NCBI GenBank assembly: GCA_016861205.1
Contig: BOKX01000001.1
Coordinates: 328,539 to 392,538, forward strand
Direction of reading: 5' to 3'
DNA: 64,000 bases
Origin: Patescibacteria group bacterium
GTDB taxonomy: Bacteria > Patescibacteriota > Microgenomatia > UBA1400 > PJMF01
Both the position numbers and the translations under genes were made by a program. Below the pieces are notes generated by a model, which saw only the letters and a list, made by a program, of their open reading frames with translations, was not told where the DNA came from and made no database searches. Of the stretch, positions 27,621-55,881 are shown piece by piece; the stretch's first letter is position 1, and each line of letters begins with the position of its first letter.

Positions 27621-28241
27621 CTACCATTTTGAGATCATTGCCCGTGGCGTTCTAGCTAAAATCTTCAAATCATTCCAAATTGAACGCTGACGAGCGTACT
27701 CAGCATCCATCTTGGCACGTGTCACAAAGGGCACTTCATTACGACCACCTGTTTGCCAGGGGCCAGTGATTCCGGGCTTAACAGACAAAATATCGTTGGC
27801 GTATGACTTCGTTTCGGGGTAGCGACTCGTCTGCTCATCGAGCTCACGCTTCACGTAGGCACGTGGTCCAACCATGCTCATTTCTCCCTTGAGCACGTTG
27901 TAGAGCTGCGGAAACTCGTCAATCGTTAACGATCGCAAAATCTTGCCCAACTTTGTAATCCGCGGGTCATTTTTGACTTTCCAGTCGTTTTTCTTAAACT
28001 CTTCGAGTAGCTTTTTGTCGTGTTTGTGCAAGATGTCATCGGCATCTTTGACCATCGACCGAAACTTGTACAAGTTAAATTCTTCACCCTGCTGTCCAAC
28101 TCGTTTGTGTTTGAAAATGACCGGCCAACCTGAATCAAAGTAGATTAAAACCGGTACGATAAACCAAAACGGTAAGAAAAGTATCGTCAGTGTCAGGGCC
28201 ACAACCAAATCAAGAATTCGTTTTTGCTGTTCGTAGTGCAT
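27621..28241 (-). CDS. Monotopic polyprenyl-phosphate phosphoglycosyltransferase (PglC/WecA-alternative 'bacterial sugar transferase' family); glycan initiation
   Basis: 206 aa. Single re-entrant helix (LTLTILFLPFWFIVPVLIYF), then KRVGQQGEEFNLYKFRSM and DEFPQLYNVLKGEMSMVGPR, the signature of the small PGT family. Confidence 0.85.
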   Translation of the reverse strand: MHYEQQKRILDLVVALTLTILFLPFWFIVPVLIYFDSGWPVIFKHKRVGQQGEEFNLYKFRSMVKDADDILHKHDKKLLEEFKKNDWKVKNDPRITKLGKILRSLTIDEFPQLYNVLKGEMSMVGPRAYVKRELDEQTSRYPETKSYANDILSVKPGITGPWQTGGRNEVPFVTRAKMDAEYARQRSIWNDLKILARTPRAMISKW

Positions 28242-34108: not shown

Positions 34109-36028
34109 CTAGCTTCGTCGGGTACGACGCGTTCGTGGTTTCGTTTTCGCACCTCGGGATCGCTTGCCTGCTTTTGATTTGGTCGCCGAAGCCGTCTTGA
34201 TGGCCTGAGCTAACGTCACTGATTCGGCATCCCCAGGTTGAACGGGAGATAGAGTAGCCAGCTTTTCATCTTTTTGGCGGCGGGTAATGTACAAGGCTGC
34301 CATCGCCAAACCGGCCAAACTCCAGTAGGTTTGAGCAACCTTCGAAGCCGCAAATACGTCGATGTAAATGGCGTTCAGCAGCAAACCAATACTGCCACCG
34401 ATAAAGCCAACCGCCACCGAGCTCACTAACCAGTCCGCATCTTTGATACGGCGGAAAGACTTAACGAGCAAGTACACGATTGCACCGTAGAAAACGATAA
34501 AGCCAATCGCGCCCGTCTCACCGAGTGTGCGCAGGTAGTTATTGTCAGTACTATCCGCTTCGGTAAAGATCTCGATCCCTTCTTTGGTAAGCGTCGCATA
34601 ACCCGTACCTAGGAACGGGTTGTACAAGAAACCTTCCAAAGCTCGTGGCCAGAGCGTTTCCAGCCGGATACATAGCGACAATTCTTTCTCAAGTGCACAT
34701 TCAGAGTAAACTCTTGGTCGCTGCACTTTTTTCACCACTTTCTCACCCTGTTCATCAACTGTGGTGACTTCTACCAAGTCAGGGATGTTCTCATATACAC
34801 CGGCCGGTAAGTGAGTGGGAGCCGGTGCCTTGAAAATTGGCGGTGCCGATACCAACGGTTTAGAACCATTATCACCTGTCGGTGTTGGTGGCTGATCTTT
34901 GCTACTGGCAACTTCTTGAGTCGCAGCCAACTCAGCGGCGATCTGGGCCGCAACTTGATCGGTTGAAACACCATTGGCGGGTTGCTTATCGGTTTTGGGC
35001 AACATTTCTTGCAAGCGCTTCGGCGACAGGGGCAAGCTGGCCACCTGCTCATCGCTGAGTACCACTCTTCGCCAGTCTGTTAGCTGCGCCGCAGCTGAGG
35101 CTAAGGTCGGGTTAGCATTGACCACATGTCCCAATCTTTCCGACAGGTCAGCTCCGAAGTAGTAAAACAGGACTAAGATGCCAAGCAGCGTCAGCGTTCC
35201 ACGACTCAAAGCAAACCTGATTCGCTGTGACCAATTAGTCTGTAGTAAGGCTGTAATTAAAACAACTAGACCAACACCTCCCAAGTAGGCGGCGAATGGC
35301 ATTCGAGATGCACTCAAGATAAGCAACCAACTCCCCAGCCAAAAAGTGAGCCACAAACCTCGCTTGGCCCAGGTATGGGCGGTTTTCAGGGCCAACGCCA
35401 AGATAAGTGGTAACACGGCCACCATGTAAGCTGCCATGTCGTAATGCCCGGCAAATGTTGACTGTACACGCGCGTACTGGGTCAGATATAAACGAATACC
35501 TTTGCTAAACTCTCGATTCATTGTCGAGTACACCGGCCAATAGTAGTATTTTTGACCATACCCATACGCTGCAATTGCAACTACGGTGGCCACGAGCAAG
35601 CCAAGGATAACCTTCAACTGCCAGCGGTGCTTAATAGAACTAAATGCAATAAAAAACAGCGTGAAGTACTCAAGGTAGCGGAAGTAATGGAGGATGGTTT
35701 TGCCTAAGTGCAAGGGCTGCAGCGGCACGGTCTGAGTAACGTACACAGCTGAGACTGTTGAGGCCGCTCCCACAATGGCATACGCCACTACCCACCAGAA
35801 GAAACCCACATTCCAAGTGATCTTTCGTCTCAAGGCTTGAACGAGCCATACTAGACTTGCTCCCAAGATTACAAAGTCCTCTAAGCGCACCCGAACGATG
35901 TACTGCTCGATTGGGCTCCACAGCGGAATCTTAGGATACAGAGGTACAAAAACGATGAGCAAACAGGCGAGCACAAACAACAGATACTCATCCAACCAAC
36001 GTCCAACTTTCGAAAGGGTGTGCCACAT
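34109..36028 (-). CDS. O-antigen ligase/polymerase family (Wzy_C) polytopic membrane protein with a large Pro-rich extracytoplasmic insertion and a basic C-terminal tail
   Basis: 639 aa, >10 TM. NNYLRTLGETGAIGFIVF matches the Wzy_C/WaaL motif (HN.yL..l.E.G..G). A ~170-aa insert (..PTPTGDNGSKPLVSAPPIFKAPAPTHLPAG..) precedes it. The C-terminus is KSKAGKRSRGAKTKPRTRRTRRS. Confidence 0.65.
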   Translation of the reverse strand: MWHTLSKVGRWLDEYLLFVLACLLIVFVPLYPKIPLWSPIEQYIVRVRLEDFVILGASLVWLVQALRRKITWNVGFFWWVVAYAIVGAASTVSAVYVTQTVPLQPLHLGKTILHYFRYLEYFTLFFIAFSSIKHRWQLKVILGLLVATVVAIAAYGYGQKYYYWPVYSTMNREFSKGIRLYLTQYARVQSTFAGHYDMAAYMVAVLPLILALALKTAHTWAKRGLWLTFWLGSWLLILSASRMPFAAYLGGVGLVVLITALLQTNWSQRIRFALSRGTLTLLGILVLFYYFGADLSERLGHVVNANPTLASAAAQLTDWRRVVLSDEQVASLPLSPKRLQEMLPKTDKQPANGVSTDQVAAQIAAELAATQEVASSKDQPPTPTGDNGSKPLVSAPPIFKAPAPTHLPAGVYENIPDLVEVTTVDEQGEKVVKKVQRPRVYSECALEKELSLCIRLETLWPRALEGFLYNPFLGTGYATLTKEGIEIFTEADSTDNNYLRTLGETGAIGFIVFYGAIVYLLVKSFRRIKDADWLVSSVAVGFIGGSIGLLLNAIYIDVFAASKVAQTYWSLAGLAMAALYITRRQKDEKLATLSPVQPGDAESVTLAQAIKTASATKSKAGKRSRGAKTKPRTRRTRRS

Positions 36029-38692: not shown

Positions 38693-38708
38693 ATCTTGTC
38701 CGAATGGT

Positions 38709-39281: not shown

Positions 39282-39335
39282 AGAATTGTAATTTCGTGTT
39301 TTTTGATCAGAAGTTCGGTGTTCTTTCGCCACCAA

Positions 39336-43039: not shown

Positions 43040-44521
43040 TCAGTTACTACTTATTCTGCCACTTGGTTTTGACCAGATTCTGACAAATCCCACACCAGGC
43101 CAGCTACGCAGTTCCACCTCGGTATAACCCAAGCTGCGCAAAACTTGGTTGACTTTCCGCGCTGGATCACTCAAGTCATTCAGGTAGTCAAAGGTCACCA
43201 CATACTCATACTCAGTGACTGGCTTGAGCACCTCAGCTAGATCGGGGACTTGATCAACGTGGAGCTGACCAGTAGCTATGACCGAGTACCCGTCATCATC
43301 ATACCATCGCCAGGGTGCAAAGGCCTCTGGGAAGGCAAACACCGCCACCGTTTTGGTAGCAGGATATCGGCTACGCACCCAAGTCTGAACCGCTCGCCAG
43401 TCTTCGCGTTGATACTGTGGCTGCCGATAGTAGGCCAAGGTTCCCCATACATTTATAACTAGCAACAATCCTAAGCCAAAACTACCCCATTTAACCTTCG
43501 ATTGCGTTCCTAACCAGCCAACCAATAGGTACCAGGCTGGCAGAGAAAATAACACCCGCTTCGGCTGCAAAACTGGAATCACAAACGACACCAGCCAGGC
43601 ACCGAGAATCGGCAACACCAACCACACACTCGCGATAACCACGGGATGATTCCAAGACCAGCGGCCGACTTTCCGCAGCTGCCAGCTGACCACCCCAAAC
43701 CAAGCACCTATCCCGACCAAGCCTGCTATAAACGGCCAGCTCACCTCAACATCCAAGACCCCAAACACAAACTTGGCCACCACCAGTGGCAAGGATTTCA
43801 GCTGCGGCACACTGACAACCGCTGACCAACCAGGCAACTGAGCTTGAACGTCTCCGCCTGCTGCCAGCTGCAAGCTAAAAATTGGCAGCCAGGGCACCAT
43901 CGCTAGAGCCATTCCGACCGCTGTTATGATGCTCGCTCGTCGCCAAGTCGGCCGGCTAAGCCATAGATACCCCAGCTGGGTCGCTAGCAAAAAAGGATAT
44001 AAGTATGAACTGTACATACCAGCCACGCCCATCACTCCCCACAGACCCCACCATCGAGCCACTGGCACTCGCGAGGTACTCTGTTTTACTAACCACCACC
44101 AACTCAACATAGCCCAAAAGGTAGGTAGTGAGTACTGACGCAACTCCTGTGAATAAAAAATATGGAACGAGCTGGTAGCCAGCAACCCAGCACTCCACCA
44201 TGCAGCTTTAGGACCCGTTATTTTTTCAGCGATCTTAAAACATAGATAAACGCTCAAGACACCCGGCACCAAGGCTCCCCAGAACCGCAGCCACCACTCA
44301 GCGTGACTCACGTACTGAACTACATGAAGTATCAAGTGCAGTAAGGGTGGTTGGAAATCAGGAATGATTTCAAACTGTTGCCACCAGGGCCGAGAACTCT
44401 CGAGTGCTTGGGCTGCCTCGTCGAGCCAAAATGAGCCAGTCAACAGCGGTAACCGCAGCAACAAACTCAGGCCAACTACCATCAGCCATCCCCACTTCAC
44501 CCAAAAAGACTGTTTGCTCAT
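43040..44521 (-). CDS. GT-C fold glycosyltransferase of the ArnT/PMT_2 (GT83/GT39-like) type. It uses a polyprenyl-phosphate-sugar donor. An alternative TTG start is at 44557.
   Basis: ~12 TM. The first periplasmic loop carries LDEAAQALESSR and FQPPLLHLILHVV, matching the GT83/GT39 signature (DE.ryae.a..m / KPPL.yWl). Confidence 0.65.
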   Translation of the reverse strand: MSKQSFWVKWGWLMVVGLSLLLRLPLLTGSFWLDEAAQALESSRPWWQQFEIIPDFQPPLLHLILHVVQYVSHAEWWLRFWGALVPGVLSVYLCFKIAEKITGPKAAWWSAGLLATSSFHIFYSQELRQYSLPTFWAMLSWWWLVKQSTSRVPVARWWGLWGVMGVAGMYSSYLYPFLLATQLGYLWLSRPTWRRASIITAVGMALAMVPWLPIFSLQLAAGGDVQAQLPGWSAVVSVPQLKSLPLVVAKFVFGVLDVEVSWPFIAGLVGIGAWFGVVSWQLRKVGRWSWNHPVVIASVWLVLPILGAWLVSFVIPVLQPKRVLFSLPAWYLLVGWLGTQSKVKWGSFGLGLLLVINVWGTLAYYRQPQYQREDWRAVQTWVRSRYPATKTVAVFAFPEAFAPWRWYDDDGYSVIATGQLHVDQVPDLAEVLKPVTEYEYVVTFDYLNDLSDPARKVNQVLRSLGYTEVELRSWPGVGFVRIWSKPSGRISSN

Positions 44522-44556
44522 AGTCAGTAACCAATTACAATCATGGTATAGTAACA

Positions 44557-44574
44557 ACTATCTCGTGCGATAGT
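44557..44574. promoter_or_regulatory. Palindrome ACTATC-N6-GATAGT in the divergent promoter region between the GT-C gene and the UDP-GlcA decarboxylase gene; candidate operator
   Basis: Perfect 6-bp inverted repeat with a 6-nt spacer, flanked by AT-rich TAGT-rich sequence. Confidence 0.25.
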
Positions 44575-44613: not shown

Positions 44614-45594
44614 ATGTCATCAGGAACTGTCATTATTACCGGAGCCGCTGGCTTTGTTGGGTCACACTTAACTGATCGTTTTCTATCTGACGGCTGGCGT
44701 GTCGTGGGGGTCGATAACTTGATCACTGGTCGCGATGAAAACCTCGCCCACCTTCAGGGAAATCCCAGCTTTACACTCATTAAGGCAGATGCGAGCCAAG
44801 ATCCAGCCGGCTACCTCCCCGCTGACGTGCAACCCGACTTGGTTCTCCATTTCGCTTCTCCGGCCAGTCCACCTGTTTACCAAGCCCATCCCGTTGAGAC
44901 GTATCTTGTTAACAGTCTTGGCACTCATTTCTGGCTGGAGTGGCTTCGCGAAGCTCATCCTCAAGCCCGGTTTGTGTTTGCCAGTACCTCTGAAGTGTAT
45001 GGGGATCCTGAAGTCCATCCCCAAGTTGAGTCATACTGGGGCCGGGTCAATCCGAATGGTCTTCGATCATGTTATGACGAGAGTAAACGGCTTGGGGAAA
45101 CCATTTGTGGCGTCCACCAACGTGACTTCGGCATGGATGTGCGAATCGTTCGCATTTTCAATACCTATGGCCCCCGAATGAATCCAGCCGATGGCCGGGT
45201 GATCCCTGATTTCATCGCTCACATTCTTAAAAATGAACCAGTGGTCATTCATGGAACTGGTGACCAAACTCGATCGTATTGTTATGTGTCTGACTTGGTA
45301 GATGGCATCGTGGCATTAGCGACCCAAGAGGGACATAGTGGTCTGACAGTGAACCTCGGCAACCCCGAGGAGTTCACCATCAATGAAACCGCTCAAATCA
45401 CATTTGAAGTGGCCAAGGAGTTAGGACTGACTATCTCGGATACACTCCAAACCACCTTCAAACCACTCCCAAGTGACGACCCGACCCGGCGGCAACCTGA
45501 TATAACATGTGCCCGCCAAAAACTAGACTGGTTTCCGACCGTTTCGTTCCGAACTGGTTTGCGAAAAACTATCGGGGCATGGCACTCTCAGTAG
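44614..45594 (+). CDS. UDP-glucuronate decarboxylase / UDP-xylose synthase-like SDR (ArnA-C-terminal-domain type)
   Basis: VIITGAAGFVGSHL Rossmann motif, ASTSEVYGDP, and SCYDESKRLGET (the UXS YDEGKR motif rather than the YxxxK of 4,6-dehydratases). Confidence 0.75.
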   Translation: MSSGTVIITGAAGFVGSHLTDRFLSDGWRVVGVDNLITGRDENLAHLQGNPSFTLIKADASQDPAGYLPADVQPDLVLHFASPASPPVYQAHPVETYLVNSLGTHFWLEWLREAHPQARFVFASTSEVYGDPEVHPQVESYWGRVNPNGLRSCYDESKRLGETICGVHQRDFGMDVRIVRIFNTYGPRMNPADGRVIPDFIAHILKNEPVVIHGTGDQTRSYCYVSDLVDGIVALATQEGHSGLTVNLGNPEEFTINETAQITFEVAKELGLTISDTLQTTFKPLPSDDPTRRQPDITCARQKLDWFPTVSFRTGLRKTIGAWHSQ

Positions 45595-47179
45595 CCAACT
45601 TGAGCAAATACACGTCACACACATGATCACATCCTTCGGATACTGGTACAAAAATAAAAGTTGATTTGTACCGTTCGTAATCACGGATTACTTGCTGCGC
45701 ATGGGTAATATAGGCATTACTAATATACAGCTCTTTGCCTTCGGCAACCCACGCTGCATAACCCTGAATTAAATCTGAATACATTATGTCATCACCCCAG
45801 ATGTATTCTCCCTTCTGCAAAAACTCTTGAGCTGTAGATAGTGGTACCACCCGATAGGCACCCACTTGATACGCATCAACTAAGAAAGGTGGTAAAGCTG
45901 TAATCAGTATGGCAGTAGGTTTATTCGTGAAAACCTGATTGAAGTGCTGAATGGATTCAAACTGCCAGGCTCGTGAGCGGTGCAACACGTTGGCGGCTAA
46001 GATTTCTTTAGCCAATCCAACTTGGCTGTTCAGCTGCCCCAATCCAACCACCATTAACCCAATTATTAGGACAACCATTATCTTTCTATGAGATTTTTGT
46101 AGCAGTTGATCGAAAAACCAAGTCACAACTAGACACAATATCGGAATACTGTAGATGATATATCTGGCATCCACCACATAAAAAACTAAGGCTATCGGCC
46201 AGAGTGCCAACCAAACTGCTGCCATCCCCCGCCACGCACCGCGAAGTTTATCGCTCACCAGGAGGCCGTACCCAAAACCTCCCATGGCTAAAACGAAGAA
46301 CAATCCCGAGCTGAACGGATATCGCTGCCACAAGAATTGATTAGCTCCGCCCAAAACTATTGCAAGATATGCGAGACTGTTACCAGGAATATGAGCTAAG
46401 TTGTAAAACTGCCCGCCATGGAGTAACTGGTCAAAAGCCACCTTAAAAAATGCCCCCACCGGCACTTTGGCCACCAGGAAGTAAGTCCAAAAAAGGACCA
46501 CCATGGCGATCATGACACTCACAAAAGCTACCCGAATCCGCTGGGTTTGGGTAAACCAAATGCGCACCATCAGCCACGTTGCTAGGACTCCCACCAAGCT
46601 GATAGCTGCAAACCTGGTCAATAATAATCCGCCGATACCTATGGCTGTCAAAACCAGCTGCTTCAAGCTTGGCTTAGGCACCACCAAACCATAAAGTGAC
46701 AACAAGAAGAGGGGAACAGCTATATTTTCTGACATCGGGAGGGTCGGCAGCCACCAGATGAAAGCATGACTAGCTAAACACACAACCACCAAACTCGGTG
46801 CCCACCAGTGTTTGGTGGTCACCCGTGCAATCAGCCACATCAGCCCAAAGCTGGTCAAGCCTAACATGGTGTTGACTATCACAAACGAACTAGGTGACTT
46901 ATTGATCAGATAGCCCAAGCTCAAAACTACCGCATATAAAGGCGGCACCCAGAGTCGGACAGTCTCACCTAAATACTCGAGCTGTAATCCCCTGCCCATG
47001 ACTGCATTGCGGGCAGACAACGTATACAGCAACCCATCTGGATATGGTTCTAGATTGAATAAAAAATGATGTGTCGAAACTATGCTAAGAAGTGAAACTA
47101 CCAAAAAACTGATTAGAACTAGCCCGAGGACCCCATACGTTTTTAACCAGTCCAAGTTATGTCGCATGAACACTCTCAT
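45569..47179 (-). CDS. Second polytopic membrane protein, probably also a GT-C fold glycosyltransferase
   Basis: 536 aa, >10 TM. N-terminal loop EPYPDGLLYTLSARNAVMG and VPPLYAVVLSLGYL resemble the GT-C DE/PPL loop motifs. Its 3' end overlaps the convergent UXS gene by 26 nt. Confidence 0.45.
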   Translation of the reverse strand: MRVFMRHNLDWLKTYGVLGLVLISFLVVSLLSIVSTHHFLFNLEPYPDGLLYTLSARNAVMGRGLQLEYLGETVRLWVPPLYAVVLSLGYLINKSPSSFVIVNTMLGLTSFGLMWLIARVTTKHWWAPSLVVVCLASHAFIWWLPTLPMSENIAVPLFLLSLYGLVVPKPSLKQLVLTAIGIGGLLLTRFAAISLVGVLATWLMVRIWFTQTQRIRVAFVSVMIAMVVLFWTYFLVAKVPVGAFFKVAFDQLLHGGQFYNLAHIPGNSLAYLAIVLGGANQFLWQRYPFSSGLFFVLAMGGFGYGLLVSDKLRGAWRGMAAVWLALWPIALVFYVVDARYIIYSIPILCLVVTWFFDQLLQKSHRKIMVVLIIGLMVVGLGQLNSQVGLAKEILAANVLHRSRAWQFESIQHFNQVFTNKPTAILITALPPFLVDAYQVGAYRVVPLSTAQEFLQKGEYIWGDDIMYSDLIQGYAAWVAEGKELYISNAYITHAQQVIRDYERYKSTFIFVPVSEGCDHVCDVYLLKLATESAMPR

Positions 47180-48449
47180 CGGTTAGATGTCGATAGTACC
47201 ACCAAGCAACGACAACCGTACCCAAAAATAAGATACCGCGAGTAACGAGCCTCGTCCAGACGGTGGCTTCAAGCCCATAGATCGGCAAAAACCAGAAATT
47301 TCCCCCAATAGTGAGTGCCAACTGCAGTAAGCCCGAAACTGAAAAATACCATGGGGCTTCAAAACTAAAGAAAACCGCAATAAATGGAATCACAGCAATT
47401 GTTAAAAATGCAGCCCCCAAAAGCCCAACTAAGAGTGGTAAGCCCGGCAAATACTCGGCACCGATGGTCAAAATAATTAGCCACTTGGCACTCACCGCCG
47501 TGACCACAAATCCCAGACAACTAGCTACCACCACAGCCCAAGCTTTCTTGAAGTAGCTTCGTAAATGAGCTTTGCTGTGATACTTTGCCACTCGGGCATT
47601 CAGTACATTTCCCAGTGAGTAGGCAATCAAAGTAAACAGCATTGCAATTCTGGAGGCACCGCTTAACAAGCCTGCTTCATATGTTGAAAGGTAACCTTGA
47701 ACAAATAATACATCCAAATTTTCAACCAAGCCGGCTGCAATAAACGCCACCGCAGAGTGACTGGCCATGCTTCTGATCAGCTGACGTTCAGCCTTAAACT
47801 CACCCTGTACTGAAAACGTTACCCAAACAGGCAAAAACCGTCGCCAAATGAGTACTGGCAGTAAGGGCGCTACCAAATACCAAACAAGGAAACCACTCGT
47901 CGTAGTCAACGACGTGATTGTCAATACCACGATGCCAATCAGTTTGGCAGTTGCTTGCATTACATTAATCACCACTAGCTTAGAAAAAAGGTGGAGAGAC
48001 TGTAACATAGCCTGCAGATGCTCATAGAGTACCGCGCAGCTACTGAGTATAAATGCCAACAACACGATCGTCGGCGAATCGAAGTTTAACCAACTGCTGA
48101 TAAATCGGTGTGCGAATAACCCTACCACAGCTACCACTAGAATCGCGCCAAACTTTAATCGAGTTGTATACGAAAATAACCGGTTAATACCCACCCGATC
48201 ATTACTCCGAGCACCATATTTTTGAACGGCATTACTCAAACCAAGATCAGTCACCCGATTTAAAATCAAAGCCAGAGAAAATCCAATACTGAACTCACCA
48301 AATTTTTCGGGACCCAAAATTCGAGAGACCAAAATCATCGCTAGAGCTGAGATACTCATGGAAACGGTATTCCCAATTAGCACACCCGCGCTTTGTCGCA
48401 ACCCTTTTGATTGGCTCAAGGTTGCCAGACGACGTAACGGTGAATTCAT
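47157..48449 (-). CDS. wzx: MOP-superfamily polysaccharide flippase (Wzx-like)
   Basis: 430 aa, ~12 TM; the N-terminal region (GNTVSMSISALAMILVSRILGPEKFGEFSIGFSLALIL) is typical of the Polysacc_synt family. Confidence 0.7.
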   Translation of the reverse strand: MNSPLRRLATLSQSKGLRQSAGVLIGNTVSMSISALAMILVSRILGPEKFGEFSIGFSLALILNRVTDLGLSNAVQKYGARSNDRVGINRLFSYTTRLKFGAILVVAVVGLFAHRFISSWLNFDSPTIVLLAFILSSCAVLYEHLQAMLQSLHLFSKLVVINVMQATAKLIGIVVLTITSLTTTSGFLVWYLVAPLLPVLIWRRFLPVWVTFSVQGEFKAERQLIRSMASHSAVAFIAAGLVENLDVLFVQGYLSTYEAGLLSGASRIAMLFTLIAYSLGNVLNARVAKYHSKAHLRSYFKKAWAVVVASCLGFVVTAVSAKWLIILTIGAEYLPGLPLLVGLLGAAFLTIAVIPFIAVFFSFEAPWYFSVSGLLQLALTIGGNFWFLPIYGLEATVWTRLVTRGILFLGTVVVAWWYYRHLTDESVHAT

Positions 48450-48571
48450 ACCCTTAGTATAGCAACAACTTTGCTACCAAACAGGTCAAGATATCAACGA
48501 GCTACCCATCAATCCGTTCACGCTCCTTATTGCCCACCACATTCTGTGTTAGTATTGGTGCAGAAAGATCT

Positions 48572-49396
48572 ATGTCGTTCGAAGTTGTTATCAAAGCCAG
48601 ACCTCAGTGGCGATTATTTGATTGGCGCGAGCTGTGGCGTTTTCGCGAGCTACTCTATATCTTTGGTTGGCGGGATATAAAAGTTCGGTACAAACAGACA
48701 GCAATTGGTATTTTGTGGGTTGTGCTTCAACCTGTGGTTAACACGGTTATTTTCACCATTTTTTTTGGTAACTTTGCTCATATCCCCTCAGGCCCGCTGC
48801 CATATCCCATTTTTGTACTCTTGGGTTTGTTGTTTTGGGGGTTTTTTTCTGCTGCTTTGAGCCGGGAAGCCAATAGTTTTATTGAAAATGAACAACTTGT
48901 TAAAAAAGTCTACTTCCCCCGTGAGATCCTACCAATCTCGGCCATCGGAGCTGTTTTGGTGGACTTTTTAGTAACGCTCGGCCTCTTCATACTCATGTTG
49001 CTTATCTATAAAGTGCCTGTTCCATGGCTCTTTATTCCTTACTTTATTGTCGGGATTTTGATCACTATCACCACTTGTATCGGCCTGGGCTTGCTTTTGG
49101 CAGCCATAAACATAAAGTATCGCGATGTTCGCTATGTTATCCCTTTTTTCTTGCAAACGTTGATTTTTGTGACACCGGTGATTTACCCAACGAGCTTAGT
49201 CCGCCCATCATTTCAGTTGTTACTTAGCTTGAACCCCATGACAGGCGTTATCGATTCCTTGCGGTCAATACTCGGGACTAATTCCAATCCACACCCCGAA
49301 TACCTGCTTATCTCAGCATTCTCGAGTATTATCTTACTTTTAATAGGGTTCATGTACTTCAGAAGAACTGAACGTTACTTCGCTGACATCCTATGA
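48572..49396 (+). CDS. wzm: ABC-2 type glycan export permease Wzm (start set at MSFEV)
   Basis: WRELWRFRELLYIFGWRDIKVRYKQTAIGILWVVLQP is the diagnostic ABC-2 N-terminal motif; 6 TM. Confidence 0.85.
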   Translation: MSFEVVIKARPQWRLFDWRELWRFRELLYIFGWRDIKVRYKQTAIGILWVVLQPVVNTVIFTIFFGNFAHIPSGPLPYPIFVLLGLLFWGFFSAALSREANSFIENEQLVKKVYFPREILPISAIGAVLVDFLVTLGLFILMLLIYKVPVPWLFIPYFIVGILITITTCIGLGLLLAAINIKYRDVRYVIPFFLQTLIFVTPVIYPTSLVRPSFQLLLSLNPMTGVIDSLRSILGTNSNPHPEYLLISAFSSIILLLIGFMYFRRTERYFADIL

Positions 49397-50604
49397 AACC
49401 AATCATTGAAGTCTCTCATCTTAGCAAGAAGTATCGCCTTGGAGAGCGTCAGGCGTATATTACCCTGCGTGACAGTGTGAGTGCCCTCCTCAAAAACCCC
49501 TTTCAGCAATTTTCAGCCCACTTGAACCCTGATGAATTTTGGGCATTAGATGATGTTTCATTCTCAGTGAATCAAGGCGAAGTACTCGGCGTGGTTGGTC
49601 AAAATGGGGCAGGAAAAAGTACCCTGCTGAAAATTCTCAGTCAAATTACCCCGCCGACTCAAGGTCAAGTCACGTTGCGCGGACGAGTCGGTAGTTTGCT
49701 GGAAGTTGGCACCGGCTTTCATGCTGAGCTGACTGGTCGTGAAAACATCTACCTGAACGGGGCTGTATTAGGAATGAAACGACATGAAATCAAAGCCAAG
49801 TTTGATGAGATCGTCGCCTTTGCCGATGTGGAACGATTTTTAGATACCCCGCTCAAACATTTCTCAAGTGGTATGTACATGAGACTAGCTTTTGCAGTAG
49901 CTGCCCACCTTGATCCAGAGGTTCTAATTGTTGATGAAGTTTTAGCAGTCGGTGATGCCCAGTTCCAGAAAAAAGCCTTAGGTAAAATGAGTCAGGTGAC
50001 TTCCCAGGGGAGAACGGTCTTATTTGTTAGTCACAACCTGACCGCGGTCAGAAGCTTGTGCCAGAAGGCGATTTTGCTCGATAAAGGTAAACTCATCCAA
50101 CACGGCGACGTCGAACATGTGTTGAATCACTACAATGCAGATGCTAAAACTCAACTCGAAAAAAGTTGGGACTCGGCCGCTACCGCACCTGGCAATTCAG
50201 AAATTAAGCTCAAGTCAGCGCATCTTAAACCACACGGCACTGACACCATAACTGTTGCGACACAATTGACTCTGTCACTCCAGTTTTGGAACTTCATGTC
50301 AAAAGCAAAACTCAATATCAGCTTAGTGGTATCAACAGTTGACGGCCAAGTAGCTTTCAATAGCATCTCACCAACACAAGATTGCTCAGAGGGCGTGATT
50401 AGCTGCACCTGCCACATCCCTTCCAACCTCCTCAATGATGAGCATTACCGTCTCAGAATTCTCGTCGTTCACGACCGGGCTCACATTGTGGCCAGTTTTG
50501 ACGATGTTTTGACATTTGAAGTCAAAGACACCATTCGGGAAGCTGGCTGGCAGGGAAAATGGGTCGGGGTAGTGCGGCCACAGCTTGACTGGAGCTTTTC
50601 TTAG
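49393..50604 (+). CDS. wzt: ABC glycan export ATPase Wzt with a C-terminal (~150 aa) carbohydrate-binding extension
   Basis: Walker A GQNGAGKSTLLKIL, signature FSSGM, Walker B LIVDEVLAVGD. The extra C-terminal beta-rich domain fits a Wzt O-antigen-binding module. Confidence 0.85.
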   Translation: MKPIIEVSHLSKKYRLGERQAYITLRDSVSALLKNPFQQFSAHLNPDEFWALDDVSFSVNQGEVLGVVGQNGAGKSTLLKILSQITPPTQGQVTLRGRVGSLLEVGTGFHAELTGRENIYLNGAVLGMKRHEIKAKFDEIVAFADVERFLDTPLKHFSSGMYMRLAFAVAAHLDPEVLIVDEVLAVGDAQFQKKALGKMSQVTSQGRTVLFVSHNLTAVRSLCQKAILLDKGKLIQHGDVEHVLNHYNADAKTQLEKSWDSAATAPGNSEIKLKSAHLKPHGTDTITVATQLTLSLQFWNFMSKAKLNISLVVSTVDGQVAFNSISPTQDCSEGVISCTCHIPSNLLNDEHYRLRILVVHDRAHIVASFDDVLTFEVKDTIREAGWQGKWVGVVRPQLDWSFS

Positions 50605-50618
50605 ATTGTGACCGCACT

Positions 50619-51464
50619 ATGCGAACTCGATTATCTTCTTTAAAAAAACACCTACCACCAAGCTTAGTCTTAGCACTTGCTAACAGTCGCCAATACATTA
50701 CCCACCGCAGCTACCTAGGGTTCGAGAAGCGCTGTCCAATTTGCCTAGCACCGCTGCGCAAATTCATCCCCCTGAGCGCGATTGCTGACGGCATTTTTAT
50801 GCAAACACTTCAGATCCGCGGCCACCGATACACAGTTAATAATTATGAAACACTGAATGTCGAACACTTTCTTTGCCCGATCTGCGGCTCACAAGATAAA
50901 GCTCGCCTGTATGCTCTTTATTTAAAAAAGATTTTTGACAAGCTCAATCGCCAGCCACCCAAGCGTTTTCGGCTGGTGCACTTTGCCCCAGAAGGTGGAC
51001 TGCCAGAATTAATTCGCCGTTATCCTTGGATACAGTACCGGTCTGCGGATCTTGAAAGGCAAGATGTTGATGACCAAGCCGATCTGACAGCCCTACCGTA
51101 TCGTGACCAGTACTTTGATGCCTTTATCTGCTCCCATATTCTCGAACACATACCAGACGACAAACTGGCCCTTCATGAGCTGCATCGTATTCTCAAACCA
51201 GGTGGTTGGGGTATCTTAATGGTTCCGATCATGAAAAAACTACCTAGAACCTACCAAAACGCCACAATCACTGACCCAGAGGACCGCTTGCGTCACTTCG
51301 GCCAACGAGATCATGTTCGTGTCTATGCCAAACCCAGCTTTTTAGCCATGATTCGAAAGTCCGGTTTCCATTGCCAGCAAGTAACTGCCGTCGATTTTCC
51401 AGAAGTGAACTTTAATTCAATGGGCATCGACCCCAAAAGTGTGTTATACGTAGTGCATAAGTGA
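50619..51464 (+). CDS. Class I SAM-dependent methyltransferase with an N-terminal 2xCxxC zinc-ribbon; candidate glycan chain-terminating methyltransferase
   Basis: CPICLAP...CPICGSQ, then the methyltransferase fold (LVHFAPEGG...ILKPGGWGILMVP). Confidence 0.6.
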   Translation: MRTRLSSLKKHLPPSLVLALANSRQYITHRSYLGFEKRCPICLAPLRKFIPLSAIADGIFMQTLQIRGHRYTVNNYETLNVEHFLCPICGSQDKARLYALYLKKIFDKLNRQPPKRFRLVHFAPEGGLPELIRRYPWIQYRSADLERQDVDDQADLTALPYRDQYFDAFICSHILEHIPDDKLALHELHRILKPGGWGILMVPIMKKLPRTYQNATITDPEDRLRHFGQRDHVRVYAKPSFLAMIRKSGFHCQQVTAVDFPEVNFNSMGIDPKSVLYVVHK

Positions 51465-52039
51465 ACAGCATGCCATCCACACCCCAAACCAGTTTTTATT
51501 CCGAAACTGAGTTAGCGACTCTTGGATTAAAAGCGTACGGCCAAGAGGTACTAATCAGCCGGAAAGCTTCCCTTCTATCACCGAGCCAAATCAGCGTCGG
51601 TGATCATGTGCGGATTGACGACTTCGCGCTTTTATCTGGCGAAATCAGACTTGGCTCTTATGTACACCTCTCTGCTTTTGTAGCACTCTACGGCACCAAC
51701 GGCATACACTTGGAAGACTACTGTGGTATTTCTGCCCACTCAACAGTGTACAGCGTCACCGACGATTTTAGCGGCAAGTCATTGATCGGGCCGATGGTAC
51801 CATCAGCACTTAGAAATGTTTCTGGTGGGCTTGTCCATTTTCAGTCGCACACGCAGCTGGGCGCCCACAACGTAGTTATGCCGGGGGTAACGCTTCATGA
51901 AGGGGCAGTCACAGGCGCACTTTGTTTTGTAAACTCTGATTTACCTGCCTGGACAATCTCAGTCGGAATTCCCAACCGCGTCTTAAAGAAACGACAGCAA
52001 ACAGTCTTATCACTGGTTAAAAGAGACCCTCAATCATGA
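51461..52039 (+). CDS. Hexapeptide-repeat (LbH) acetyltransferase, likely aminosugar N-acetyltransferase
   Basis: ISVGDHVRIDDFALLSGEIRLGSYVHLSAFVAL hexapeptide repeats; ~190 aa, overlapping the downstream aminotransferase. Confidence 0.65.
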   Translation: MNSMPSTPQTSFYSETELATLGLKAYGQEVLISRKASLLSPSQISVGDHVRIDDFALLSGEIRLGSYVHLSAFVALYGTNGIHLEDYCGISAHSTVYSVTDDFSGKSLIGPMVPSALRNVSGGLVHFQSHTQLGAHNVVMPGVTLHEGAVTGALCFVNSDLPAWTISVGIPNRVLKKRQQTVLSLVKRDPQS

Positions 52040-53202
52040 CACAAACCATCCGGCCTTTCAAAAAACCCATCTACGTCACCAGGCCACTACTGCCTGACCT
52101 AGATGTGTTCAAACGACAGCTAGAACACGTCTGGGAGAGTCAATGGTTAACAAACAACGGCCATCAGCATCAGCTCCTGGAGCAGCGGATTGTGGAAACG
52201 TTACGAGTCCCCCATGCTTCATTATTTAATAATGGCACAATTGCACTGATTACTGCCTGCCAAGCCTTGGGACTGACAGGTGAGGTGATCACCACCCCGT
52301 TTACGTTCGCTGCCACCCCACACGTCTTAGCTTGGAATAACCTAACCCCAGTTTTTTGTGATATCGATCCAGTTACCATGAATATTGACCCGTCAAAAAT
52401 CGAGGCACTGATCACTCCCAGAACATCTGCCATCCTGGCTGTCCACGTGTTTGGTCATCCCTGTGATGTTGCGGCCATTGAAACCATAGCCCATCGCCAC
52501 AAACTGAAAGTCATCTATGACGCCGCTCACGCTTTTGGTGCAGAATTGACAGTGACTGATGAAACCTCAAAAAAGTTGCCCACCAAAAAAGGGATTGGCA
52601 CTTTTGGTGACATTACTATGTTCAGTTTCCATGCCACAAAACTCTTTCATTCTGGTGAGGGTGGCGCCTTGACCTTTAATGACCCCAACTTAAAACCGTA
52701 CATCGATTTGCTCAAAAACTTTGGCATCAAGAATGAAGATGAGGTCATCCTACCCGGTATCAATGGCAAAATGAACGAGATACAGGCCGCGTTGGGGTTG
52801 GTTGTCTTAGATGAGGTTCAGGCAGAGCGTCGTCGCCGGCAGAAAATCTTAGCTCGCTATCATCATTGGCTGACTGGTGTACCAGGTATTGAGTTCACCA
52901 AAGTACCATCGTCAGTAACGCCGAGTTATCAATACTTCGTGATCAGAATTAATAAACAGAAATTTGGTAAAAGCCGAGATGAGGTCCATAGCGAGTTTAA
53001 AAACTACAATATCATCACTCGCAAGTACTTCTATCCCCTGTGCAGTCAATATGATTGCTACCGTGATCTGCCATCAGCATCACCGGCTCAACTTCCGGTA
53101 GCAAACACCATTGGCCAACAGGTCCTGTCCATGCCCTTTTACGGTGGTCTCAGCTTGAAATCTGTCGACAAAATTTGCCAAATATTGCTCAATCTAAGAT
53201 AA
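52036..53202 (+). CDS. DegT/DnrJ/EryC1/StrS-family PLP-dependent sugar aminotransferase
   Basis: 388 aa. N-terminal PIYVTRPLLPDLDVFKRQLEHVWESQWLTNNG and the fold-type I AT length; the DAAHAFGA context holds the conserved Lys region. Confidence 0.75.
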   Translation: MTQTIRPFKKPIYVTRPLLPDLDVFKRQLEHVWESQWLTNNGHQHQLLEQRIVETLRVPHASLFNNGTIALITACQALGLTGEVITTPFTFAATPHVLAWNNLTPVFCDIDPVTMNIDPSKIEALITPRTSAILAVHVFGHPCDVAAIETIAHRHKLKVIYDAAHAFGAELTVTDETSKKLPTKKGIGTFGDITMFSFHATKLFHSGEGGALTFNDPNLKPYIDLLKNFGIKNEDEVILPGINGKMNEIQAALGLVVLDEVQAERRRRQKILARYHHWLTGVPGIEFTKVPSSVTPSYQYFVIRINKQKFGKSRDEVHSEFKNYNIITRKYFYPLCSQYDCYRDLPSASPAQLPVANTIGQQVLSMPFYGGLSLKSVDKICQILLNLR

Positions 53203-53208
53203 GAAACC

Positions 53209-54930
53209 ATGTTAAAGCCAGTTGTTAGCGTCCTGATTATCACCTATAACCAAGAGCGCTTCATTGCCCAGGCTGTTCACAGCGCACTCAATCAGCAAAC
53301 CACATTTCCGTACGAAATCGTGATTGGTGACGATGGTTCTACTGATACCACCAGGAAGATACTCACTGATCTCAGAAACCAATATCCTGACCGAATTAAA
53401 CTCATCTTTCAAACCAAAAACCTTAAACCTGTCCGAAATTTGATGAGCGTGTACAAAGCCTGTAAAGGCAAATTCATCGCCCTCCTAGAGGGTGACGACT
53501 ACTGGACTTCACCTTTAAAATTAGCTCGCCAAGTTGAGTATCTAGAAACACATCCCGATGCAGCTATTTGTTACCACAGCACCACGCTTGTTAACGAACA
53601 TGGTCAGCCAATGGTTGTACTCCCGGTACCTCGTTTCAAAAAGCCAGTCTCAACACTGACTGATCTGATCAGAAATGGTAGCTTTATGGCAACTTGTAGC
53701 ACTATGTTTCGAAACAAGCTCTTTGGAGCATTTCCCGATTGGTTTTCCGAATTAACCTATATTGCCGACCTACCACTCAATGTTTTGAATGCCCAGCATG
53801 GAAAAATTGGCTACATCGACCAAAACATGGCCGTGTATCGATCATGTTCGTCAGCGCTAGCATTTACGTCTCAGAAACTGGAGTTGGTTTATCAGGAGCA
53901 CATCACCGTTTTTCAAAAACTCCTCACCCACCTTCCCCAACAGTACACCACTATCATTCAGGACCATCTAGCCCAATTCTATTTCTGGTTGGCTGAAGTA
54001 CAGTTGCGTCAAAATCAGGCCAAAATAGCCTGGAAACAATACCGCAGTTTTCTTCAGCTGCGATCGAGCTACTCCTATATCTCGCTCAGTCGTGAGCTGC
54101 GTTTTCTCGCCAAGTTCAAACTTGTCATCTGGCTCGATCGAATCAAACGAATGATGCGAAACCAGTGGTCAGCCACAATGTATCTGCTCTCAATCAGCTG
54201 GGTGCATTCAAAAGTGAACCAAAAACTGCACTCCCAAAGAGTAATTCTCGGCAGAGTATCCTGCATCGGCCGAGCCATTGTCCAACTTCACGAAGCTGAT
54301 CACTCATATGTTCTGGTTAATCAACAAAAGGTTCGAGCAGATTTGTGGACTGACTGGCTGGGCAGCTGCCCTCGTCCCAAAGCTAACTCGGTGAGTGGCT
54401 GGATTCGACGGCCTGATGTCTATCCTCTTATTATCGAACAGGCCCAGTTGCCGTGGCTGAACCAGCGCAAACCGAGCTACATAGTTTTTGATTCATACAG
54501 CGAGCTGACTGATAAAAAGTTTACCCATCGCAATCAAGGTTGGTCGTTCGCAGCACATTATGCTGATGTTGCGCTAGATCCCGATTTTGAGACAGAGTTT
54601 ATTGGGCACGACCTACTTGATGTGCATGACCTGACAAGTGCATACGACCGCTGTTTTGCCGACCTCACCCACCGCTTTCCTGGTACCCCTATCTACTTTA
54701 TTCACGCATCCACCGCTCATGACTCTCGATCGTTGTACCGATCCAGGGCGAAGACAATTAAAAAAGCTATCACGTCTCTGCTGCCTCGGTACTCAAACTT
54801 ACACAGCATCACCGTGCCAGACTCAGCAGTTAACATGTCTGACGATGGACTTCCCTATCACTATCACCCTGAAACTCTCCGACATTATCAGCAAGCATGG
54901 CTTCGACTTGACAAAGCGCTCGAGGCATAG
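53209..54930 (+). CDS. Two-domain protein: N-terminal GT2 glycosyltransferase fused to a ~320-aa C-terminal domain of unknown function
   Basis: VSVLIITYNQERFIAQAVHSALNQ...IVIGDDGSTDTT...EGDDYW (GT2), then a long C-terminal region with no recognised motif. Confidence 0.65.
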   Translation: MLKPVVSVLIITYNQERFIAQAVHSALNQQTTFPYEIVIGDDGSTDTTRKILTDLRNQYPDRIKLIFQTKNLKPVRNLMSVYKACKGKFIALLEGDDYWTSPLKLARQVEYLETHPDAAICYHSTTLVNEHGQPMVVLPVPRFKKPVSTLTDLIRNGSFMATCSTMFRNKLFGAFPDWFSELTYIADLPLNVLNAQHGKIGYIDQNMAVYRSCSSALAFTSQKLELVYQEHITVFQKLLTHLPQQYTTIIQDHLAQFYFWLAEVQLRQNQAKIAWKQYRSFLQLRSSYSYISLSRELRFLAKFKLVIWLDRIKRMMRNQWSATMYLLSISWVHSKVNQKLHSQRVILGRVSCIGRAIVQLHEADHSYVLVNQQKVRADLWTDWLGSCPRPKANSVSGWIRRPDVYPLIIEQAQLPWLNQRKPSYIVFDSYSELTDKKFTHRNQGWSFAAHYADVALDPDFETEFIGHDLLDVHDLTSAYDRCFADLTHRFPGTPIYFIHASTAHDSRSLYRSRAKTIKKAITSLLPRYSNLHSITVPDSAVNMSDDGLPYHYHPETLRHYQQAWLRLDKALEA

Positions 54931-55879: not shown

Positions 55880-55881
55880 CT

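Follow-up and report, generated by a model that had tools for sequence, protein, structure and literature searches.

A surface-polymer gene cluster with a sugar-end-recognising ABC exporter, a cassette for a probable methylated amino-sugar cap, and a flippase route

In the S-layer glycan cluster of Geobacillus stearothermophilus NRS 2004/3a, which contains wsaP, wsaB, wzm, wzt, and wsaE, the chain terminates in a 2-O-methyl cap, the predicted ligand of Wzt (PMC2943079). The same system uses a WbaP-type (Bac_transf) initiator and a Wzy_C protein for the final transfer, the Wzy_C domain being found in the S-layer O-oligosaccharyltransferase WsaB (PMC2943079). In Aquifex aeolicus, the carbohydrate-binding domain (CBD) of WzmWzt binds a 3-O-methylated terminal sugar (PMC9445017). 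WbdD, the terminator of E. coli O9a/O8 and K. pneumoniae O3, is a large coiled-coil protein that joins a methyltransferase to a kinase (PMC3482155). A methylated amino sugar can itself be terminal, as in anthrose, a terminal 2-O-methyl-4-acylamino-4,6-dideoxyglucose (PMC9614988, PMC10050317); in antABCD of Bacillus anthracis, antB encodes a glycosyltransferase and antC an aminotransferase (PMC6947953). Last, in the streptococcal, lactococcal, and enterococcal loci for rhamnose-rich wall polysaccharides (GacD/E with GacK/GacL; RgpC/D with WpsG/WpsJ), an ABC exporter serves the backbone, and a Wzx-family flippase together with GT-C enzymes adds side chains or a second chain beyond the membrane (PMC9574508).

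The window, a 64,000-nt stretch of DNA from an uncultured Patescibacteria group bacterium, holds a gene cluster for a surface sugar polymer; it encodes an ABC exporter with a domain that recognises a sugar end, a cassette that probably makes a methylated amino-sugar cap, and a second, flippase-based route. The interval at its core is part of a glycan locus of ~36 kb. The flippase, wzm, wzt, and methyltransferase genes lie where the earlier note had placed them: the plus-strand operon runs wzm, wzt, SAM methyltransferase, acyltransferase, DegT aminotransferase, and GT2, and is faced by the minus-strand flippase gene. The operon is tight, with a 4-nt overlap of wzm and wzt, a gap of 14 nt between wzt and the methyltransferase gene, and later genes that overlap or lie 6-17 nt apart. 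The same gene order is found in a relative with 53% identity (L004). The layout is real, yet it matches designs already known from other bacteria. As in Geobacillus, wzm, wzt, and a methyltransferase-bearing gene succeed one another with overlapping or nearly overlapping codons (PMC2943079), and the window has all four of the Geobacillus gene types (wzm/wzt, methyltransferase, Bac_transf initiator, and Wzy_C); unlike Geobacillus, it also has a MOP flippase and a cassette with DegT and an acyltransferase. The 'TET' operon of the Pseudomonas syringae CPA has the same order of wzm, wzt with a C-terminal domain, O-methyltransferase, and bifunctional glycosyltransferase, and its proposed transport-elongation-termination role matches the one that we propose here (PMC7820976). 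However, the TET polymer is a Gram-negative rhamnan O-antigen made without an amino-sugar cassette.

The wzm gene (48572..49396, plus strand) encodes an ABC-2 permease of 274 aa from ATG (ABC2_membrane, E 3e-21). Its ORF opens at 48530 with TTG, and gene callers on identical contigs use the ATG at 48572; the match of Wzm to the NCBIfam model of the galactan Wzm/RfbD (E 9e-24) falls under the model cut-off. The wzt gene (49393-50604, 403 aa), the start of which overlaps the wzm stop within ATGA, encodes a nucleotide-binding domain (residues 1-244; 49393..50124, plus strand; ABC_tran, E 1e-23) followed by a C-terminal CBD (residues 245-403; 50125..50604, plus strand). The earlier note had taken the C-terminal extension of Wzt to be of carbohydrate-binding type, and comparison of the ~150 residues beyond the nucleotide-binding domain with the known domains bears this out. 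The AlphaFold2 model is all beta with a mean pLDDT of 91.5, and its best 14 PDB matches in Foldseek (E 5e-7 to 2e-4) are all Wzt CBDs (2r5o, 6o14, 8dky, and 5hno), known cap-binding domains of the E. coli O9a, A. aeolicus, and K. pneumoniae O12-type Wzt; 2r5o represents the O9a-type system. In addition, 23 of 51 close homologues match Pfam Wzt_C. These matches mark the C terminus as a genuine Wzt-type CBD and not a generic dimerisation module.

Among solved structures, the closest to the exporter is A. aeolicus WzmWzt (PDB 7k2t, 8dku, and 8dky), with Wzt matching 8dku at E 2e-64 as a single sequence and at E 4e-91 as a family profile, which aligns with 8dku through the CBD. The two Wzt proteins are equally long (404 aa in A. 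aeolicus, 403 aa in the window) and share the CBD fold; however, their CBDs are only 18-20% identical, and the methyl-pocket Trp362 of A. aeolicus falls opposite an insertion and has no conserved counterpart in the window CBD. The lack of this Trp counts against the cap reading developed below, and the ligand of the CBD is therefore not readable from sequence. The domain belongs to a subfamily that is present in 725 representative clusters; the invariant motifs of the window family are instead TAPGN, PxxLLND, and W-x-GKW-x-G-x-x-RP.

On balance, we favour with moderate confidence the reading that the locus encodes the core of an ABC-transporter-dependent, cap-dependent surface glycan pathway, in which a cap made by the cassette ends the chain and the flippase carries a separate lipid-linked sugar. 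Gene identities, the folds of the CBD and the methyltransferase, the four-cysteine motif, the close spacing of the operon, the conserved gene order, and the fusions are shown directly; the order of reactions given here, the chemistry of the cap, chain termination through methylation, and the cargo of the flippase we infer. The many glycosyltransferases of the locus would assemble the chain on a polyprenyl carrier at the cytoplasmic side. DegT would aminate an NDP-keto-deoxyhexose, the hexapeptide transferase would N-acylate it, and GT2 would place the N-acyl-amino-deoxyhexose on the non-reducing end of the chain, where the four-Cys methyltransferase would O-methylate the terminal residue and so block elongation. 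The CBD of Wzt would then bind the capped end, and Wzm/Wzt would translocate the chain. Such a terminal modification, halting polymerisation and read by the Wzt CBD, would be analogous to those of E. coli O9a/O8 and K. pneumoniae O3. The MOP flippase, with a 536-aa membrane protein and beside a PMT_2 GT-C enzyme, may flip a separate lipid-linked sugar or oligosaccharide, to be attached to the exported chain or polymerised beside it outside the membrane as a decoration or a second chain. Capped ABC export and flippase-hybrid designs both already have precedents, although the ABC transporters of the rhamnose wall loci are not described as cap-dependent, unlike the one proposed here.

The flippase (47157..48449, minus strand; 430 aa, MOP superfamily, Wzx-like) scores 42.5 bits with Pfam Polysacc_synt PF01943 (E 7e-11; cut-off 28.2) and has ~12 hydrophobic segments. 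Its gene overlaps by 23 nt that of the 536-aa polytopic membrane protein (45569..47179, minus strand), in which ~11 hydrophobic segments precede a soluble tail of ~150 aa. This protein found no sequence match in Pfam, NCBIfam, or the PDB, and it is weakly similar (E 0.004) to the adjoining GT-C-type membrane glycosyltransferase of the PMT_2 family (43040..44557, minus strand; 505 aa; Pfam PF13231, E 4e-7, 30.7 bits; cut-off 26.1). It is a candidate GT-C transferase or Wzy-like polymerase, co-transcribed with the flippase. Both the pairing of these two genes and the divergent position of the flippase beside wzm are kept in the 53%-identity relative. The divergent intergenic region spans 48450..48571, and thus the two routes meet at 48.45 kb, as had been stated before; no consensus promoter was found in this gap. 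As in the rhamnose wall loci, wzm/wzt thus adjoins genes for a MOP flippase, its polytopic partner, and a GT-C enzyme of the PMT_2 family. Loci that pair an ABC exporter with a Wzx flippase are a well-established hybrid type among Gram-positive wall polysaccharides and no anomaly (PMC9574508).

The earlier note had spoken of a Wzx/Wzy-type machinery. The Wzx-like flippase stands, but the Wzy half was over-called, as the sole Wzy_C protein (34109..36028, minus strand; PF04932, E 1e-9) lies 11 kb off and may be a polymerase, a ligase, or an oligosaccharyltransferase; the Wzy_C domain marks ligases and oligosaccharyltransferases too. This protein matters for a possible but rather unlikely alternative, that the locus makes two independent polymers. 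The flippase would then serve a complete Wzx/Wzy-type pathway for a second glycan, with the small phosphoglycosyl transferase (Bac_transf; 27621..28241, minus strand; PF02397, E 2e-61) as candidate initiator at 27.6 kb, GT4/GT2 enzymes, and the Wzy_C protein at 34.1 kb, and it would adjoin wzm only because envelope genes happen to cluster. The initiator, several glycosyltransferases, and the Wzy_C protein are indeed encoded upstream of the flippase and on its strand, and a flippase adjoining the wzm-wzt-methyltransferase module was not found outside close relatives, which also counts against the capped hybrid pathway. However, ruvABC lies between the flippase and the Wzy_C gene, no Wzz-type chain-length regulator was found among the ORFs scanned, and ABC-dependent pathways too, such as that of the Geobacillus S-layer glycan, make use of Bac_transf initiators and Wzy_C proteins (PMC2943079). 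The pairing of the flippase with polytopic membrane proteins, like that of GacK/GacL and WpsG/WpsJ (PMC9574508), and the conservation of the divergent arrangement at 53% identity likewise argue against two independent polymers.

The methyltransferase gene (50619..51464, plus strand) follows wzt directly, as had been noted, and encodes a 281-aa class I SAM methyltransferase (Methyltransf_11, E 1e-12; mean pLDDT of the model 93), our candidate cap methyltransferase. Its zinc-ribbon segment (50733..50885, plus strand) runs between two CPIC motifs encoded at 50733-50744 and 50874-50885; the four cysteines C39, C42, C86, and C89 are invariant in 25 homologues. The motifs are thus as described before, but the enzyme is not unusual, since its family comprises at least 5609 clusters at E <= 0.001 in many phyla. 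A ubiquinone enzyme was rejected, with scores of 19-29 bits against UbiE/MenG NCBIfam cut-offs of 158-420. The suggested likeness to WbdD did not hold: the window enzyme is short, bears a zinc ribbon, lacks kinase and coiled coil, and has no WbdD match by profile search at E <= 1 or in the Foldseek top 50. It is also a stand-alone protein, whereas the Geobacillus methyltransferase forms the N-terminal part of a rhamnosyltransferase with three functions.

Downstream lie a hexapeptide-repeat acyltransferase (51461..52039, plus strand; Hexapep, E 8e-9), which likely N-acylates the amino sugar, a DegT/DnrJ/EryC1 sugar aminotransferase (52036..53202, plus strand; PF01041, E 1e-99), and a GT2 glycosyltransferase (53209..54930, plus strand; Glycos_transf_2, E 1e-27) as candidate capping-sugar transferase. 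The best NCBIfam model for DegT is a DesI-type 4-aminotransferase (315 bits, under the cut-off of 650). GT2 has no membrane segment; its C-terminal half is lineage-specific, with no homologue elsewhere. GT2 homologues come after DegT in many loci. The SDR at 44614-45594 scores far under curated NCBIfam cut-offs, and the NCBIfam scan identified no clear equivalog for a 4,6-dehydratase, which counts against the proposed pathway.

The cassette resembles one on B. cereus-group megaplasmids, which encodes an enoyl-CoA hydratase, a protein of 852 aa that joins two GT2 domains to a C-terminal four-Cys methyltransferase, an aminotransferase, and an acyltransferase. Judging by gene order, this cassette is probably orthologous to antABCD, and the C-terminal domain of AntB would presumably be the 2-O-methylating enzyme. 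The plasmid methyltransferase domain is 33% identical to that of the window (E 1e-43) with all four cysteines kept, and the acyltransferases are 43.5% identical (E 3e-58). In contrast, the aminotransferases are only 25% identical, which counts against our reading, and the window has no enoyl-CoA hydratase. The anthrose system also works without an ABC transporter, its target being a spore glycoprotein.

We then consider whether the methyltransferase ends the chain or tailors a sugar. In neighbourhood statistics from 80 genomes of many phyla (65 informative loci for wzt and 74 for DegT), wzt was directly upstream of the methyltransferase gene in 21/65 loci, and all 23 Wzt adjoining the enzyme carry at least 153 extra C-terminal residues, the length of a CBD. 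A Bacillota genome even encodes ABC_tran, Wzt_C (E 1e-21), and the methyltransferase in one 677-aa protein. The earlier proposal of a Wzt-linked terminator was thus upheld as to the link. However, the family accompanies DegT (within 10 kb in 45/74 loci, directly downstream in 27/74), in a cassette with an acyltransferase and GT2, more often than Wzt (26/65), and therefore the terminator is likelier to be an amino sugar that the complete cassette makes and methylates than a bare methyl group. In the reverse test, each of the six Wzt of the same CBD subfamily had a methyltransferase no more than two genes downstream, and four had a DegT homologue (39-49% identity), but only two of the methyltransferases were four-Cys enzymes, the others being of other class I types, which counts against our reading.

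We regard it as unlikely that the enzyme only tailors sugars, at the nucleotide-sugar stage or on internal residues, with the CBD reading the amino sugar or another end. The stronger association with DegT would fit this, as would cassettes without an ABC transporter, such as those of the B. cereus plasmids and mycobacterial loci, and the closest solved folds, which include RebM and AtmM, sugar O-methyltransferases that tailor small molecules. Moreover, 39/65 loci have no wzm/wzt within 10 kb, and the Rhizobium mongolense member is an orphan among unrelated genes; thus, family membership alone is no proof of capping. Against tailoring stand the Wzt-CBD-methyltransferase fusion, the CBD on every adjoining Wzt, and the terminal position of the methylated amino sugar in anthrose (PMC10050317, PMC9614988). 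Furthermore, eight loci and the B. cereus plasmids encode fusions of the methyltransferase with GT2 or multi-GT proteins, which places the enzyme at the step of chain assembly; some P. syringae strains have methyltransferase-GT fusions as well (PMC7820976).

Finally, it is highly improbable that the MOP protein is a housekeeping flippase for lipid II or a teichoic-acid-type polymer, unrelated to the glycan: the window does contain a dcw cluster for cell division and wall, and the ORFs scanned included no MurJ-type gene, but the protein matches Polysacc_synt and not the MurJ family, and its gene, which overlaps that of its polytopic partner, is surrounded by glycosyltransferase genes and lies 25 kb away from the dcw cluster.

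The large glycan locus spans ~36 kb (27.6 to 63.3 kb) of a chromosomal stretch that also carries the dcw cell-wall cluster (5.7-22 kb), and it encodes ManC together with many GT4 and GT2 enzymes. Within this locus, a flippase gene on the minus strand (47157-48449) and a wzm-wzt operon on the plus strand are transcribed divergently, with 48450-48571 between them. The flippase is a 430-aa MOP-superfamily protein recognized by Polysacc_synt (PF01943; E 7e-11, 42.5 bits vs. a cut-off of 28.2). The wzm ORF opens at 48530, with ATG 48572 being the start on identical contigs, and its product matches ABC2_membrane (E 3e-21), while wzt (49393-50604) encodes an ABC_tran protein (E 1e-23). The two genes share a 4-base stop/start overlap and form one operon, and a spacing of only 14 nt leads from wzt to the gene of a 281-aa SAM methyltransferase (50619-51464, plus strand; Methyltransf_11, E 1e-12) with two CPIC motifs (50733-50744 and 50874-50885). 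On the same strand, and with virtually no intergenic space, the operon goes on to encode a hexapeptide acyltransferase (51461-52039), a DegT aminotransferase (52036-53202), and a GT2 glycosyltransferase (53209-54930), followed by further genes. The gene calls of the earlier note, from the flippase to the methyltransferase, were borne out by the ORF listing and profile searches. Promoter and terminator scans gave scores no better than shuffled sequence, and no tRNA genes or Rfam families were found across window positions 1-64000. We refer to the polymer throughout as a surface glycan and not as an O-antigen.

The closest solved relative of the whole Wzt is the 404-aa Wzt of Aquifex aeolicus (E 2e-64). 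The nucleotide-binding domain aligns with residues 47-282 of this protein, and the additional domain comprises residues ~255-403. The Pfam family Wzt_C (PF14524) did not match the last 160 residues of the window's own Wzt even at E <= 10, and the isolated C terminus returned a weak Ig-like match alone. The identity of this region was therefore settled by structure prediction and by matches in homologues. Wzt_C was detected in 23 of 51 homologues (31-47% identity, best E 1e-7), which align with the C-terminal part over its full length. An AlphaFold2 model of the domain, calculated as a monomer from the homologue alignment, had a mean pLDDT of 91.5 and was all beta. When this model was compared to solved structures with Foldseek, the top 14 matches were all Wzt carbohydrate-binding domains (CBDs; TM 0.58-0.66, best E 5e-7), namely, those of E. 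coli O9a (2r5o), A. aeolicus (6o14, 8dky, 8dl0, 7k2t, 8dku, and 8dne), and the O12 type (5hno and 5hnp). The predicted fold is the beta-sandwich/jelly-roll seen in 2r5o, 6o14, and 5hno. Thus, the carbohydrate-binding-type extension proposed in the earlier note is supported, and because the top matches are exclusively Wzt CBDs, the alternative of a generic dimerisation domain is ruled out.

The profile alignment of the CBD family with A. aeolicus Wzt extends through the CBD. In A. aeolicus, Trp362 closes the 3-O-methyl pocket (PMC9445017). This residue lies inside an insertion relative to the window's CBD family, where it is not conserved, and the ligand is therefore not readable from sequence. 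The family has invariant motifs of its own and is moderately large, as an exhaustive search with the CBD recovered 725 representative clusters (E <= 0.001), whereas a word-index query with just the CBD returned one protein. The exhaustive search yielded a 737-aa protein in which a Wzt with the same CBD subfamily is joined to a C-terminal GT1 domain. We considered it as a Wzt-CBD-methyltransferase fusion and rejected it because the extra domain is GT1.

Scoring of the candidate clusters placed at least 5609 of them in the family of the methyltransferase (E <= 0.001), with members distributed over Acidobacteriota, Nitrospirota, Bacteroidota, Planctomycetota, Cyanobacteria, Proteobacteria, Actinomycetota, Bacillota, Saccharibacteria, and others. 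Alignment of 25 members showed that C39, C42, C86, and C89 are invariant, together with P87, S172, H173, E176, H177, D231, H232, and R234. The resulting signature consists of CxxC and CPxC before the Rossmann core and of conserved SH-x-LEH and DH-x-R motifs, with HFAPE-x-GL standing where the glycine-rich motif is usual. The CPIC...CPIC zinc ribbon had been described as unusual; given that its cysteines are invariant in the 25 members aligned, the predicted zinc ribbon is a family hallmark and not an oddity of this gene. We call the enzyme a 4-Cys methyltransferase.

The predicted structure of this enzyme (mean pLDDT 93) matched generic class I enzymes alone in the PDB by profile search and Foldseek (TM <= 0.43), with the sugar O-methyltransferases RebM and AtmM among the top structural matches. 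Membership in the WbdD type of terminator was rejected, as the protein has 281 aa and no kinase domain, and no WbdD chain appeared in the PDB profile search at E <= 1 or in the Foldseek top 50. A quinone methyltransferase role of the UbiE/COQ5 or MenG type was also rejected. The Pfam Ubie_methyltran match covers residues 154-197 alone (22.2 bits), and the NCBIfam UbiE/MenG models scored 19-29 bits vs. cut-offs of 158-420, so that the concern that this might be a ubiquinone enzyme falls away. Comparison with viral structures by Foldseek likewise gave generic methyltransferases alone (TM <= 0.45). With no close giant-virus relative, a link to the predicted mimivirus viosamine methyltransferase is unsupported and was discarded.

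To place the family in its genomic setting, we searched 80 genome loci with 10-kb flanks for homologues of the window genes, and upstream counts were restricted to the 65 loci whose upstream sequence extended for 2.5 kb or more. A wzt gene stood immediately upstream of the 4-Cys methyltransferase on the same strand in 21 of these 65 loci, and no transporter was found near the family member in 39. In every adjacent case (23 of 23, two of them on shorter contigs), Wzt had at least 153 residues past the nucleotide-binding domain. Of 74 loci, 45 carried DegT within 10 kb of the methyltransferase and 27 had it immediately downstream; a hexapeptide transferase and GT2 frequently came after DegT. In a Bacillota MAG (L052; JAEZRV010000090.1, 8687-10720), a single 677-aa ORF joins ABC_tran, Wzt_C (E 1e-21), and the 4-Cys methyltransferase with its cysteines kept. 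At eight loci, the methyltransferase was part of a larger protein (358-1797 aa), with a GT2 region detectable in five. In the reverse test, all six Wzt proteins with the window's CBD subfamily had a methyltransferase no more than two genes downstream; two of these six enzymes belong to the 4-Cys family, and a DegT homologue was present for four of the six Wzt proteins. Gene identities, predicted folds, synteny, and fusions are shown by these analyses.

Two of the fetched loci deserve separate mention. In Picosynechococcus sp. PCC 7003 (CP016474.1, L089 4491-12073), wzm, wzt with the same CBD subfamily, a 4-Cys methyltransferase (45% identity), DegT, a hexapeptide transferase, and GT2 follow one another in a gene order that matches the window, and this cultured cyanobacterium is tractable. 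In Rhizobium mongolense (L035 9989-10804), a family member is an orphan: its neighbours encode EAL-GGDEF, alcohol dehydrogenase, MFS, and asparaginase proteins, and glycan genes are absent from its vicinity.

One uninterrupted block of the window (50619-54930) encodes the methyltransferase, hexapeptide transferase, DegT, and GT2 and resembles a cassette from the Bacillus cereus group. On megaplasmids of this group, an anthrose-operon-like row, present on 41 Bacillus plasmid records and represented by B. cereus plasmid NZ_CP045607.2 (L085 7182-12417), starts with an enoyl-CoA hydratase gene and continues with genes for an 852-aa protein, an aminotransferase, and an acyltransferase. The 852-aa protein has two GT2 domains and ends in a 4-Cys methyltransferase domain that is 33% identical to the window enzyme (E 1e-43); the acyltransferases share 43.5% identity (E 3e-58) and the aminotransferases 25% (E 2e-28). 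The plasmid gene order agrees with that of the anthrose operon antABCD, in which we take antA to be a hydratase and antD an acyltransferase, the C-terminal domain of AntB presumably being the 2-O-methyltransferase. In this operon, antB encodes a glycosyltransferase and antC an aminotransferase (PMC10050317, PMC6947953), and the BclA glycan terminates in anthrose, a 2-O-methyl-4-acylamino-4,6-dideoxyglucose (PMC9614988). As in an antABCD-like cassette, the window encodes a methyltransferase, a sugar aminotransferase, an N-acyltransferase, and a glycosyltransferase together. An enoyl-CoA hydratase, the supplier of the 3-hydroxy-3-methylbutyryl group, was not found among the window ORFs scanned, and the acyl group therefore probably differs from 3-hydroxy-3-methylbutyryl.

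Together, these data argue with fair confidence for cap-dependent export. The cassette after wzt would synthesise a methylated N-acyl-amino-deoxyhexose and place it on the non-reducing end of the chain; capping would halt elongation, the Wzt CBD would bind the cap, and Wzm/Wzt would then translocate the chain. The candidate methyltransferase and amino-sugar cassette are linked to wzt by synteny and one fusion; what the cap is made of, whether it stops elongation, and what the CBD binds are inferred. Such terminal-cap logic has been demonstrated for the O-antigens of E. coli O9a/O8 and A. aeolicus (PMC9445017, PMC3482155), and the Geobacillus S-layer glycan is proposed to follow it (PMC2943079). 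The arrangement fits these well-described designs: as in the E. coli O9a-type pathway, a Wzm permease and a Wzt ATPase lie in one operon; in the Geobacillus S-layer cluster, wzm, wzt, and the methyltransferase-bearing wsaE overlap likewise (PMC2943079); and the P. syringae TET operon has the gene order of the window (PMC7820976). The observation behind the earlier note was correct and its interpretation was largely reasonable, the Wzt CBD being supported and the methyltransferase family linked to CBD-bearing Wzt, except that the enzyme is not of the WbdD type.

The same note had proposed two export routes, the second being of the Wzx/Wzy type. Of this machinery, the Wzx flippase stands on its PF01943 match, while the Wzy part would be the Wzy_C protein (34109-36028, minus strand), which is 11 kb from the flippase and whose domain also occurs in ligases and oligosaccharyltransferases. 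An independent second polymer, built with the upstream Bac_transf initiator (27621-28241, minus strand) and this Wzy_C protein, is the less likely reading, and none of the window ORFs scanned matched a Wzz-type co-polymerase. The presence of a MOP flippase next to an ABC exporter involves no contradiction: in the rhamnose wall polysaccharides of streptococci, lactococci, and enterococci, the backbone exits via an ABC transporter, and a Wzx-family flippase together with GT-C enzymes attaches side chains or a second chain extracytoplasmically (PMC9574508). The flippase gene of the window shares its transcription unit with the gene of a 536-aa polytopic membrane protein (45569-47179, minus strand; 23-nt overlap), which has no family match and no PDB sequence relative and is weakly GT-C-like (E 0.004). 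A PMT_2 GT-C enzyme (43040-44557, minus strand) adjoins this unit, the flippase and the enzyme both lying within 5 kb, with an SDR gene at 44614-45594. The divergent flippase/wzm arrangement is retained in a 53%-identity relative of the locus (L004). The flippase partner, the PMT_2 neighbour, and this retained divergence favour a hybrid pathway. A polyprenyl-phosphate GT2 with an activator, as expected for multi-component extracytoplasmic glycosylation of the GacI/J/K/L type, was not identified.

The novelty is modest and lies in the association of a widespread, uncharacterised 4-Cys methyltransferase family with CBD-bearing Wzt and an amino-sugar cassette, and in a natural Wzt-CBD-methyltransferase fusion. 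If the cap reading is right, the signature of wzt with CBD, 4-Cys methyltransferase, DegT, acyltransferase, and GT2 would mark cap-dependent export outside the enterobacterial models, and an unstudied methyltransferase family would be a maker of methylated amino-sugar chain ends. Epitopes of this kind are known from anthrax spores and the cholera Ogawa O-antigen. Sequence-only prediction of surface antigens and phage receptors in uncultured bacteria would be aided, and the current picture of cap-dependent pathways would stay unchanged. More tentatively, the 4-Cys methyltransferase, DegT, acyltransferase, and GT2 might constitute a portable cap-synthesis cassette that would install an O-methylated N-acyl-amino-dideoxyhexose on glycan ends; where the cassette follows wzm-wzt, the anthrose-like cap would be the signal for export, recognised by the co-travelling CBD subfamily. 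Were this so, anthrose-like caps would be predicted on wall or surface glycans of many phyla, and the large 4-Cys family would gain its first general function.

Several further features of the window were recorded. The C-terminal ~320 residues of the GT2 enzyme (53209-54930) contain no membrane segment and have no homologue in the 92 fetched loci, identical contigs excepted. After this gene, the same operon encodes a HAD hydrolase, a 106-aa ORF, an NTP_transferase, and a GDPD-like protein (54948-57482, plus strand), which suggests a phospho-alcohol or glycerol-phosphate-type decoration. The glycan locus is cut into two blocks by ruvB, ruvA, and ruvC (37664-39854, minus strand), inserted in its middle. 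Just upstream of the Bac_transf initiator lies a 675-aa DUF4012 protein with one membrane segment (25200-27227, minus strand). Last, a 799-aa ORF of the dcw cluster (13939-16338, minus strand) joins a MurC-type ligase (Mur_ligase, Mur_ligase_M, and Mur_ligase_C) to MurB (FAD_binding_4 and MurB_C).
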